Positions 16,489 through 39,320 of a DNA stretch of 64,000 nt are shown here, one piece after another. Within the stretch, counting starts at the first letter, position 1; each line of letters starts with the position of its first letter. The notes under the pieces were generated by a model. That model did not search any database, was not told where the DNA came from, and was given only the letters and a program-made list of their open reading frames with translations. The translations under genes were made by a program, and so were the position numbers. Source of the DNA: an uncultured Clostridia bacterium (GTDB lineage Bacteria; Bacillota; Clostridia; Christensenellales; CAG-314); contig CANOTO010000001.1 of assembly GCA_947570215.1 (NCBI GenBank), positions 262,735 through 326,734 on the forward strand. The letters run 5' to 3'.

Positions 16489-16518
16489 AGTATACCCCCC
16501 CCCGTAATACGTTGTCAA
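16489..16518 (-). promoter_or_regulatory. Candidate promoter of the lipoprotein gene with a G9 tract inside the spacer
   Basis: On the - strand: TTGACA (16513-16518), spacer ACGTATTAC+GGGGGGGGG (18 nt), TATACT (16489-16494). Confidence 0.5.
16495..16503. repeat. Homopolymer C9 (+) / G9 (-)
   Basis: Read directly: tataCCCCCCCCCgtaat. Confidence 0.95.
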
Positions 16519-16789
16519 TACCAAAATTAAATAATGAAAAGAAAGTCAACATGTTCACTTAACAGTTAAGCAACACAAAAAAGACTATCCTACGCGAAAG
16601 CGTCGAATAGTCTGTGTCATGTCACAATAATGACAAAATATATAAATTATAGACGGTTTGGCGGATATAAACGTATTGGTTACGTAAACACCGACCGACG
16701 GCAGCCGCAGGCGGTAACGATTTTGCCCGAAAGCGTCTACTGCGCTTATACCCTGAAAACCGAAATACGTACTGTTATCCGTGAAAAGT

Positions 16790-17440
16790 CTAATCGATGT
16801 ATCGCCGTAAAACAATTACACGCGGACGCTCGTTTGCCGGAACGTCTCGAAGCACCAAGCTATCCGAAACGCAGAATTGTACGTCGCCGTTATCGAAAAG
16901 CTTTACGAAATCGCCTACGGGCGCAATATCAAGCTTACACCCGTCGCATTTGTAATGCATAGGCAATACAATCTTGGGATTTGCCGCGTCTACGTATTTC
17001 CTTGCAGTTTGCGCGTCTACCGTATACGTTCCGCCTACGGGCAGCATCAAAACGTCGCAATTCGCAATTTTGCCGACAACATTCTCGTCAAAATAACCGA
17101 CGTCCCCCATATGAACGACCTTTAATCCGTCTATTTCGAAACAAAAAACGAGATTGTTTCCGCGTTTGGCGCCTTTTTCCCCGTCGTGATAGGTCGGAAT
17201 ACTGTTAACCGTCACGTCGTCTGCGCAGCACGTAACTTCACAGTCAATCTCCGCGGGAGAACCGCTTACATTGCACACGCAATCGTGATCGTCATGATGA
17301 TGAGATACCGTTACAACGTCTGCGCGGACGCGCGGCATACAATAACCCACCGTTTCACCGTTGAAGGGGTCGCACAGCAAGGTTGTGCCCATATCGCTTA
17401 TAAGCCTGAAACAAGCGTGTCCCAAATATTGAATTTTCAT
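16790..17440 (-). CDS. MBL-fold metal-dependent hydrolase (UPF0173-like)
   Basis: The protein starts MKIQYLGHACFRL and has the SHHHDDH metal-binding motif. Confidence 0.8.
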   Translation of the reverse strand: MKIQYLGHACFRLISDMGTTLLCDPFNGETVGYCMPRVRADVVTVSHHHDDHDCVCNVSGSPAEIDCEVTCCADDVTVNSIPTYHDGEKGAKRGNNLVFCFEIDGLKVVHMGDVGYFDENVVGKIANCDVLMLPVGGTYTVDAQTARKYVDAANPKIVLPMHYKCDGCKLDIAPVGDFVKLFDNGDVQFCVSDSLVLRDVPANERPRVIVLRRYID

Positions 17441-33182: not shown

Positions 33183-35441
33183 TTAGGATATCTTTGCCAC
33201 AAGCACCGTCATATCGTCGCGCGCCTTGTTGCCTACAAGCTTCAACGCTTTGTTCAAAATCACTTCCGCTATGCTTTGCGGAACGTTCAGCGATACGTTG
33301 GAGAAAACGCCCGCTATCGCTTCGGGGTCCTTGAAGCAATCCGCCACCCCGTCGGACATAAGCACTATCACGTCGCCGACGGTTAGCGCCTTTTTAGTAA
33401 CGGACGGCTTCATCTCGTCCAAAACCCCAAGCGGCAGGCTGCTGCCGGCGACGATTTCCACCTTATCTTGGCACTTGACAAGCCCTACCGAAGCGCCTAA
33501 CTTGATAAAATCCGTCAAGCCGTCGTACAAATCTATCGCCACTATATCCACCGCGCAAAATACTTCGTTACCGCTTGTCGTAAGCAATTTGTTAACGCAG
33601 GAAAGTATAATGTCGGAATCGAACCCCGCGCGGTAAAAGCTTTCCACCAAGCCTATAGAAGTTGCCGACATTTGCTCCGCCTTGTCGCCGCTGCCCATAC
33701 CGTCGCACAGCGCAACTATACATTTGCCGTTGTCCGTACGCAAAACCGAATGAGTATCGCCGGAGATTTCGTTACCGTCTTTAGCTACCGAACTTACGCC
33801 GAATGTCACGTTAAACCGCGGCTTAACAGATAGATATACGTTATCCCACGAAACGCTGTCGGTGTTTTCCACCTTGTCCACCGCCATATTCTGTTTTACG
33901 AGAGCGGATACGATTTTTTCTATGGCAGCATTGTCCACGTCCTTTTTGGCTACGGTGGCTACTACCATCAGCTTGTCCGCCTGCTGCGCCACAGTAGCCC
34001 CTACGCACATAATATTGTGAAACACCAACCGTTCCACAAGCTCTTTTTCTTTGTCACGGTTATAAAAGGTATTGTTTTTGCAGTCGGAAGCAAGTCGCAT
34101 AAGTAAGTCGGATACTCCGCCCATCTGTTCGCCCAATAGCGTTTTGCCGCTATCCGACTGTTCCGTACGCTCGGCGTATTCGCGATAGTTTGCCGCTTCG
34201 GCGTTTACTTCCTGCAAAATCGCCGACACTCTGTCACACTTGACGGAAAGCGTTTGCGGAACGTCCAATATGGTGCTCTTACCGCGTTTAACGGCGCAGG
34301 CAGTCAGTTTTAACAAACTCTGTTCGGTAGAAACCAATTCCTGACGCCAACACTTGGAACGCTCCGAGCAATCTCGGCACACCGTCTCGGAGCATTGCTT
34401 CACAATGGACGCTTCCGCCTGTTCGGTGGTAACTCGCCCCGCCGACATAGTATAAAAGGCGTTCTTCATAGACAGAAAAATATCCGACAAACGGTACAGC
34501 CTGCGTGATACCGTATCGCCGATTTTTTTCGCAACGCTCTTACCGAGATACCTGTCGGCGTTACCGGAGCTGTAATCGCGTACGTAATTATACACAGCCG
34601 TGGGTATCACTGCGAAAACCAACGCCGAAACGAATGACGGCACTATACCGAGCATCTCCGCCTGTCCGTGAAGTCCCATAAGGTATGTCATCAAAACGTC
34701 CACCACCAACACTGCCACGGACGAAAGATACCGACTGACCCTGTTGACGGTAATAACGGACAAAGCCGCGATTACGCAATATACGCAGCAATCGTACGCG
34801 CCCGTAGCCAAAATATTGCCCAAGCCGAACAAAATTGCCGAAACCAGCGCCGTTTCTTCGCCGAAGCAAACGCTGCAAAACAGTACCGCGAAGGTTGCCA
34901 CCAAATACACGGGCTCCACTCCCCAAAAGGACAGCTGCGACAGGCAGTAGGATACGGTAGCTGTAAACAGAGCTATACACACCCGTTCGTCTAACGCAGG
35001 TCGGTAGCAAAGTCCCCGAACGAACACGGCGCGGAAAACATAAATGGAAACGTAAGCAAACGCAATGCCCGTAACGCAATATAAAATTCTGTCAAACAGC
35101 GTAAAATAATCCACAAATTTGTAAACGCAATAAAATACGTTGGCAACGACAAGATACAGCAACAAATTGAGCTTGCCTATCTTGCGTTTGACAAGCAAAT
35201 GTATTCCCCAAAACAACAGCATTACCGCTGCGCGCACGCCTGCTTGCAGCAAGCTGCCCAGCCCGTAAGCCGCCGAGCTTGCCAAGTATACTACGGACGC
35301 AATTATCGGATTTGCCGAATACAGCGCGCCCACAAACAAACCGAAGGAAATCGCTCCGCCGAACACCCCGCCCGAGCTTACGGAAACGGCGACGTAGGTT
35401 ACGTACAAAAATATCGTTTTAGCAGACAGTCTGCGTTTCAT
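33183..35441 (-). CDS. spoIIE: Stage II sporulation protein E (PP2C phosphatase with a polytopic N-terminal domain)
   Basis: About 10 TM segments precede a PP2C domain with ALCDGMGSGDKAE and MSDGV. The start was set to the ATG at 35441, 7 nt after a G9 run that can serve as the SD. Confidence 0.9.
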   Translation of the reverse strand: MKRRLSAKTIFLYVTYVAVSVSSGGVFGGAISFGLFVGALYSANPIIASVVYLASSAAYGLGSLLQAGVRAAVMLLFWGIHLLVKRKIGKLNLLLYLVVANVFYCVYKFVDYFTLFDRILYCVTGIAFAYVSIYVFRAVFVRGLCYRPALDERVCIALFTATVSYCLSQLSFWGVEPVYLVATFAVLFCSVCFGEETALVSAILFGLGNILATGAYDCCVYCVIAALSVITVNRVSRYLSSVAVLVVDVLMTYLMGLHGQAEMLGIVPSFVSALVFAVIPTAVYNYVRDYSSGNADRYLGKSVAKKIGDTVSRRLYRLSDIFLSMKNAFYTMSAGRVTTEQAEASIVKQCSETVCRDCSERSKCWRQELVSTEQSLLKLTACAVKRGKSTILDVPQTLSVKCDRVSAILQEVNAEAANYREYAERTEQSDSGKTLLGEQMGGVSDLLMRLASDCKNNTFYNRDKEKELVERLVFHNIMCVGATVAQQADKLMVVATVAKKDVDNAAIEKIVSALVKQNMAVDKVENTDSVSWDNVYLSVKPRFNVTFGVSSVAKDGNEISGDTHSVLRTDNGKCIVALCDGMGSGDKAEQMSATSIGLVESFYRAGFDSDIILSCVNKLLTTSGNEVFCAVDIVAIDLYDGLTDFIKLGASVGLVKCQDKVEIVAGSSLPLGVLDEMKPSVTKKALTVGDVIVLMSDGVADCFKDPEAIAGVFSNVSLNVPQSIAEVILNKALKLVGNKARDDMTVLVAKIS

Positions 35442-35448
35442 TGCAGCA

Positions 35449-35457
35449 CCCCCCCCC
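35449..35457. repeat. Homopolymer C9 (+) / G9 (-) followed by A8
   Basis: Read directly: gcaCCCCCCCCCaaaaaaaa. Confidence 0.95.
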
Positions 35458-35559
35458 AAAAAAATAAGGTCTATATGCTATGCTACAACGTTTAACACCG
35501 CTTCTTTTGAAATCAATAGTCGCAAATTGTATTATTATGAAACAAATCTACGCGTAACG

Positions 35560-39311: not shown

Positions 39312-39320
39312 CCCCCCCCC
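39312..39320. repeat. Homopolymer C9 (+) / G9 (-)
   Basis: Read directly: ttatCCCCCCCCCggcaa. Confidence 0.95.

Follow-up and report, generated by a model that had tools for sequence, protein, structure and literature searches.

A run of nine G residues in the spacer of a sigma-A-type promoter is likely a hypermutable simple-sequence repeat which, by slippage, tunes the gene of a SusE/F-like, putatively starch-binding lipoprotein. The run lies in the window, the whole 64,000-nucleotide stretch of DNA that was analyzed, which belongs to a 1.53-Mb assembly of 17 contigs from an uncultured Clostridia bacterium of the mouse gut. Judging from the sequence features described below, this is very probably promoter-spacer repeat phase variation of the known porA/opc type, set within a genus-wide poly-G phasome of uncultured Christensenellaceae-like gut bacteria.

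The anatomy of the promoter can be read directly. A consensus scan of positions 16300-17000 found one promoter-like site on the - strand, ggtaTTGACA acgtattac GGGGGGGGG TATACT, which has the layout TTGACA-N9-G9-TATACT and matches 11 of 12 consensus positions (Table 1). Both the -35 and the -10 boxes are conserved among the orthologues, and the lipoprotein gene starts with an ATG placed 50 nt 3′ of the -10 box. Because the strong terminator of the MBL-fold hydrolase gene stands upstream, the lipoprotein gene needs its own promoter. No Rfam family (E up to 1) matched in a search of the intergenic region and the 5′ UTR for known RNA elements. The first-pass annotation, which had placed the G9 run within an 18-nt spacer between TTGACA and TATACT, was correct, as was its choice of the only candidate promoter, and the likeness it saw to Neisseria-type promoter-spacer switches is borne out in the anatomy.

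Table 1. Features of the lipoprotein locus and the other G9 tracts of the window
Feature	Position	Strand	Remarks
GH13 alpha-amylase/neopullulanase-like gene, same locus	12095..13786	-	
LacI-family regulator	13850..14653	+	267 aa as called in other assemblies
Surface lipoprotein gene	14720..16438	-	572 aa; one Flg_new repeat, then tandem beta-sandwich modules, predicted SusE/SusF/X25-like
Shine-Dalgarno AAGGAGG	16444..16450	-	5 nt 5′ of the ATG at 16438
Palindrome TTAACGGTTAA, putative operator	16468..16478		just 3′ of the -10 hexamer; close to where transcription is expected to start (near 16482)
-10 hexamer TATACT	16489..16494	-	abuts the G run directly
G9 homopolymer, variable element	16495..16503	-	G7, G9, or G10 in other assemblies
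18-nt spacer	16495..16512	-	9 unique nt (acgtattac), then G9
-35 hexamer TTGACA	16513..16518	-	inside conserved ggtaTTGACA; TTGAC invariant in five orthologous promoters (alignment A1)
Palindrome TTAACTGTTAA, putative operator	16559..16569		upstream of the -35 hexamer; conserved in orthologues
Intrinsic terminator (hairpin + U6) of the upstream MBL-fold hydrolase gene	16577..16612	-	-28.1 kcal/mol over 86 nt, z = -4.4
MBL-fold hydrolase gene, upstream of the lipoprotein gene	16790-17440		
Second G9, T7-G9, before SpoIIE-like gene 33183-35441	35449..35457	-	7 nt before the ATG (Shine-Dalgarno position); T8G8 in one other assembly
Third G9, promoter-like context upstream of a 139-aa ORF	39312..39320	-	G9 in two other assemblies

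The N terminus of the lipoprotein, MKKTLLAVVLALLMVVALGLTAC, consists of a signal peptide and an LTAC lipobox, and Pfam recognized a single Flg_new repeat in the protein. Its AlphaFold model is all-beta (mean pLDDT, 79.9), and the best PDB matches of this model in Foldseek were SusF (4fe9; E = 4e-10), the Ruminococcus bromii Sca5 X25-2 starch-binding module (7rpy), and SusE with maltoheptaose (4fch), with E values from 4e-10 to 1e-5 and a probability of 1.0. The lipoprotein is thus like Bacteroides thetaiotaomicron SusE/SusF and the R. bromii Sca5 X25 module in its predicted fold, and its gene adjoins those of a GH13 enzyme and a regulator; the sequence identity to 4fe9, 4fch, and 7rpy is only 12-14%, and starch binding is a prediction from the model. 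On that basis the lipoprotein probably binds alpha-glucans at the cell surface without being catalytic, as part of a Gram-positive-type starch utilization locus. The signal peptide, the LTAC lipobox, and the predicted SusE/SusF/X25-like fold give the gene a surface-exposed, environment-facing product, as in the porA/opc class. To our knowledge, none of these SusE, SusF, and X25 relatives has been reported to be under repeat-tract control.

The promoter is flanked by two copies of the palindrome TTAACnGTTAA, of which the genome has just 5, and both copies are conserved at the orthologous loci. These two palindromes are probably operators of the adjacent LacI-family regulator. A possible tuning of their helical phasing by tract length was considered; their centers are 91 bp apart, which corresponds to a nonintegral number of helical turns at every observed tract length. 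If they are LacI-type operators, the stochastic switch overlies ordinary substrate-responsive repression.

Tract length differed between populations on identical backgrounds, and this was observed directly. The tract could be read in 27 assemblies encoding the lipoprotein or close alleles, where several contigs had 3-15x coverage, at which assemblies can err in homopolymers; the contig listing merged places with the same neighbor genes, and most assemblies with the window's own allele (74 index blocks) lie outside these 27. About 20 of the assemblies carried G9 (the window's own; L004-6; L077-L089, of which L089 begins at the run; L092; L100; and L101), 4 carried G7 (L091, L096, L097, and L099), and 3 carried G10 (L094, L095, and L098), resulting in spacers of 18, 16, and 19 nt, respectively. 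None of the 27 assemblies carried G8 here, the length at which the spacer would have its preferred 17 nt. A good example of an identical background is the pair L091 (G7) and L092 (G9), which had zero other differences across 3107 nt. The G9 and G10 lineages were separated by 4 SNPs in 2553 nt, and one protein allele carried both G7 and G10, on backgrounds differing by 11 SNPs in 2629 nt. Within either of the two lineages at this locus the tract was the sole recurrent indel polymorphism, the other indel being a singleton T insertion in a T run of one contig. The strain comparison that the first-pass annotation had proposed thus gave what slipped-strand variation predicts, namely different lengths among assemblies of one species whose flanks are identical or almost so.

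The same length was found in independent runs of each study (G9 in 7 and in 6 runs, G7 in 3, and G10 in 2). This agreement among samples within a study means that the lengths represent heritable states rather than random error. G9 was present in every sample of two whole studies and also in an orthologue from another species, although the two proteins are only 58-59% identical. With G9 dominating in this way, the tract is far from randomized, and the rate of switching may be low. The tract is also the point at which three contigs end; such breaks, like the return of lengths on different backgrounds, may be indirect hints of mixed lengths and reversible switching within a population. Long-read homopolymer compression was considered as a source of G7 and was rejected, as there was no other indel in 3.1 kb. 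Assemblies containing the organism come from ENA, Logan, and NCBI, and no match was obtained when JGI metagenome contigs were scanned for the exact pattern with locus-specific flanks.

Spacer length in the rest of the genome provides a reference for these states. Ordinary TTGAC[AT]...TAnnnT promoters had a 17-nt spacer in 147 cases and an 18-nt spacer in 27, with other lengths at background (5-18 each; 13 for 19 nt), and the tract-free orthologous promoters (G023, G006, and MGBC158472) also had a 17-nt spacer. The tract promoters of the genome, by comparison, had 18 nt five times, 19 nt twice, and 14, 15, and 16 nt once each, but never 17 nt. Since its 18 nt are the preferred 17 nt plus one, G9 is probably not the maximal state. 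This, together with the analogy with porA, suggests that the switch would behave like a dimmer with several levels and not like an on/off switch. At G000:C5:107181-107210 there is a paralogous promoter, TTGACA-ttagtatat-GGGGGAGGG-TATATT, upstream of the gene of an 824-aa protein; an A breaks up its G run (a "locked" tract), and the spacer is nonetheless 18 nt.

The same layout recurs in the genus, of which 47 species-level genomes were examined. The exact G runs of these genomes comprised 200 G8, 464 G9, and 167 G10. G014 and G051 were as sharply G9 as this genome, whereas the mode was G10 in G009, G022, and G054. The pattern TTGAC-N(4-14)-G(>=7)-TAT occurred 182 times, and the reversed control pattern did not occur (0). 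In 64 of 132 distinct instances the non-G part of the spacer was 9 nt long, followed by G8 in 3, G9 in 40, G10 in 19, and G11 in 2. Total spacer length over the 132 instances peaked at 18 nt (52 instances) and 19 nt (30 instances), with 17 nt in only 14, and the run was preceded by AC in 58.

These regularities bear on a rival explanation, which we consider unlikely, namely that the architecture is fixed. Here G9 would belong to a special promoter module (ggtaTTGACA-N7-AC-G9-TATACT with an 18-bp spacer) kept by selection, e.g., because the geometry of oligo(dG).oligo(dC) is stiff and A-like or because some factor recognizes it, and the rare variants would be mildly deleterious, with no switch. 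The prevalence of exact G9 among the 27 assemblies fits this explanation, as does the orthologous promoter of G014, which is again N9 plus G9 (18 nt) even though 6 of the 9 unique spacer bases have changed. So do the predominance of G9 among the N9-type promoters of the genus, the AC before the run, the lack of a 17-nt tract promoter against 147 ordinary ones, and the 18 nt kept by the paralogue with the interrupted run. Three observations argue against it. First, the length variants recur on several near-identical backgrounds. Second, some sister species have a G10 mode and spacers ranging from 13 to 19 nt. Third, the same G9 length is found at ribosome-binding sites and in coding sequence, where spacer geometry is irrelevant. 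This suggests that the length belongs to the tract as such rather than to the promoter.

Poly-G tracts are in excess throughout the genome, which is a matter of direct counts, as is their placement. The lengths of G/C runs were bimodal, with 448, 19, 4, 5, 32, 1, and 1 runs of 5, 6, 7, 8, 9, 10, and 11 nt, respectively, while A/T runs decayed smoothly and showed no anomaly. Exactly three G runs of at least 8 were present in the window, all of them G9 and on the - strand (Table 1), and the 6 G8 matches observed compare with a mean of 0.44 in shuffled sequences, none of 100 shuffles reaching 6. Of the 34 genomic runs of at least 9, 32 were outside ORFs of >=150 aa, although such ORFs cover 81% of the genome (p = 1.6e-21). 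Genes downstream of the tracts, defined as those starting within 400 nt 3′ of a tract on the G strand, had signal-peptide-like starts in 15 of 21 cases, compared to a share of 21% across the whole gene set (odds ratio, 9.9; p = 8.5e-7). The tract-associated products included BspA-type LRR/Flg_new proteins, a 2554-aa S8 protease, and a 4486-aa giant protein; lipoproteins with Glug, aBig_2, DUF5722, and 5′-nucleotidase; and also SpoIIE, a copper ATPase, and an ABC ATPase.

Two kinds of position stood out. Ten of the 39 runs of at least 8 were located between TTGAC[AT] and a -10 hexamer, which directly abutted the run in 8 of the 10 and was within three bases of it otherwise; the exact layout TTGACA/T-N9-G9-TAT(AC/TA)T was common to five of the ten. 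About eight further runs (G7-G9) lay 2-9 nt before a start codon, at the Shine-Dalgarno position, where a change in length has no obvious effect. The second G9 of the window is one of this kind: the T7-G9 before the SpoIIE-like gene (35449-35464) is likely a Shine-Dalgarno sequence, and T8G8 in the other assembly is a boundary substitution that leaves the total length unchanged. For 38 of the 39 tracts, the strand carrying the G run was the locally G-rich (leading) one, the exception being C4:85356 (G11), which follows gene orientation. At G000:C6:95778-95810, a G9 followed by ctaccggcaCCCC and T8 resembles the 5′ arm of a terminator-like hairpin and is in neither a promoter nor a start-codon context. 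On contig C7, the reading frames of MutS (871 aa), MutS2, and MutL (648 aa) are intact; with MutS and MutL present in this form, loss of mismatch repair was rejected as a cause of hypermutability.

A second locus was also seen to vary. The G9 at G000:C4:105609-105617 lies at codons 11-14 of the gene of a 368-aa membrane-anchored surface protein, and in ten other metagenome contigs with identical flanks the tract was G10 (seven contigs), G8 (two), or G11 (one). These lengths frameshift the gene, which is then called truncated: the ten contigs are those of N-terminally shortened members, of 347 and 349 aa, in the cluster of the 368-aa protein. This sister tract and the lipoprotein promoter tract are the two loci found to vary, and the set as a whole is like a phasome in its excess of G/C tracts with a distinct length peak, their expression-relevant placement near surface-protein genes, and more than one variable locus. 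The candidate phase-variable switch of the first-pass annotation is supported by the variation at both tracts, and all three G9 tracts of the window lie, as it had stated, on the - strand, 5′ of - strand genes and outside coding sequence.

The lipoprotein gene itself appears to be under poly-G control at a different position in a related species. The G023 orthologue (L009, G023:C32, - strand), whose 17-nt spacer is without a tract, instead has an intragenic G8 at nt 139-147 which frameshifts the gene, and 508 codons continue in another frame. Since G9 would restore the frame, the representative genome of G023 appears to hold the OFF state. Two relatives identified through the protein are mouse-gut MAGs of the MGBC set labeled uncultured Christensenellaceae. 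Elsewhere in the order the tracts are patchy, with none in many families and many in a few lineages (26 in G086 and 13 in G068). The 26 exact G9 runs of G086, which belongs to another family of the same order, are mostly in a C-G9-A and not a C-G9-T context, which suggests an independent poly-G expansion in a different sequence context. Identical multicopy cassettes, TTGACA-agacgggac-G10-TATAAT followed by a conserved, structured-looking leader, were found at L025, L027, and L028 (G009:C10, C30, and C38) and at L044 (G054:C35). Several of them are on short contigs or near contig ends, and they suggest a repeated element or a multicopy gene under a poly-G promoter.

A second rival explanation is neutral slippage, in which the tract would slip without any regulatory use: a lineage-specific mutational bias would lengthen runs of more than about 7 G until they reach an equilibrium near 9-10, and they would be tolerated mainly in noncoding DNA. 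The length mode is indeed genome specific and the same across contexts, the runs keep almost without exception to the leading strand, and the tracts at Shine-Dalgarno positions show no obvious length-dependent effect. What neutral slippage leaves unexplained is the strict placement of the run next to the -10 box and downstream of a consensus -35 (182 versus 0 in the control), the tenfold enrichment before secreted-protein genes, and the differently positioned switch in the same gene of G023, and we regard it as quite improbable. Finally, it is extremely improbable that the length differences are sequencing or assembly artifacts at a G homopolymer, since, error-prone as homopolymers are and despite the low coverage of several contigs and the breaks of three at the tract, the independent runs of any one study were concordant, some differences were of 2-3 nt and not 1, and neither recurrent indels elsewhere at the locus in either lineage nor anomalous A/T runs were found.

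A hypermutable promoter repeat has several known counterparts. Surface-protein genes with a homopolymer within or beside their promoter spacer include Neisseria opc/fetA and Bordetella fim, with poly-C tracts, and Mycoplasma hyorhinis vlp, with poly-A tracts, all of which give several expression levels depending on length; for such systems, PMC5084427 cites Sarkari 1994. These systems differ in base and in tract length and mostly concern single genes or one gene family, whereas each genome here has about ten such promoters and about twenty further tracts. In Treponema pallidum, the tpr genes and tp0126 are preceded by poly-G runs of 7-12 nt, which modulate transcription of these outer-surface protein genes. 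The present genome is similar in having many poly-G tracts in a small genome, upstream of surface-protein genes, but T. pallidum is a spirochete pathogen and its tracts are near the transcription start, not strictly between consensus -35 and -10 boxes.

Campylobacter is not known to possess MutS/MutL-type repair. The repair-deficient background of Campylobacter-type hypermutable poly-G is not found here, where MutS and MutL are intact. The likeness otherwise extends to a genome of about 1.5 Mb, about 30 poly-G/C tracts, a length peak at 9 and then 10, and surface structures as the main targets. Among phase-variable poly-G tracts of Campylobacter, 53% have a length of 9 and 26% a length of 10 (PhasomeIt, PMC6321876), and the length distribution of the genus described here has the same shape as that of these proven tracts. 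However, 82% of the Campylobacter tracts are inside ORFs (PMC6321876), whereas those of the present genome are mostly at promoters.

The closest likeness in anatomy is to Neisseria meningitidis porA, a surface-protein gene in which the -35 and -10 boxes are likewise separated in part by a G homopolymer (9-11 nt; van der Ende et al. 1995, as cited in PMC5084427). With 11G, surface expression of porA is high, and it is 2-fold lower with 10G and 13-fold lower with 9G (Tauseef et al. 2013, PMC3639595). One-base changes thus alter the spacer and grade expression in porA, and by analogy they may do so here. Mismatch repair is present in the wild-type host of porA, as it is here. The differences are that the present host is an uncultured commensal and a Gram-positive-type Clostridia relative, not a proteobacterium; that the run always abuts the -10 box, in a module shared by many genes; that the common state is the preferred spacer plus one; and that the gene encodes a predicted nutrient-binding lipoprotein which is also under putative LacI-type repression. 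A literature search for such tracts in Christensenellaceae found no paper.

A mechanism can be proposed from the hypermutable-repeat reading. Slipped-strand mispairing at replication would add or remove G residues, and each change would alter the distance between TTGACA and TATACT, for which 16, 18, and 19 nt were observed and 17 nt is expected to be strongest. The altered distance would shift the level of transcription in a heritable and reversible way; reversibility, rate, and the effect of each length are what we infer here. Such stochastic control would come on top of repression by the adjacent LacI-type regulator, and the tract would belong to a set that extends over the genome and the genus, with about 30 poly-G tracts in each genome, placed mostly against the -10 box of promoters of secreted proteins and lipoproteins and in some cases at ribosome-binding sites or first codons. 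A bolder version of this proposal, which is doubtful, is that the poly-G promoters are a dedicated genus-wide module (UP-like TTTTCATTATTT, ggtaTTGACA, N7-AC, G9-10, and TATACT) resting one or two bases above the optimal spacer. The 17-nt full-strength state would then be a rare, transient, or counterselected burst, or else rigid oligo(dG) would change how the spacer is read. Either way, a multilevel stochastic rheostat over substrate-responsive repression would govern the whole surface glycan-harvesting repertoire of nonpathogenic gut commensals.

Whether multilocus repeat-driven phase variation is truly restricted to pathogens, as it seems to be, has been described in a review as an open question, with database bias a possible reason (PMC11868660). 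Such variation is known almost only from pathogens, whereas the lineage described here is a nonpathogenic, small-genome gut lineage with about 30 poly-G tracts per genome. At least two of these tracts vary on metagenome-level evidence, and their main targets are surface-lipoprotein promoters, including that of a SusE/F-like putative starch binder. If the proposed reading is true, commensals also bet-hedge on their nutrient-capture and surface proteins, and MAG consensus sequences conceal heritable differences in expression state as a further layer. An in vivo readout of these states could then be had from the tract lengths in metagenomic reads.
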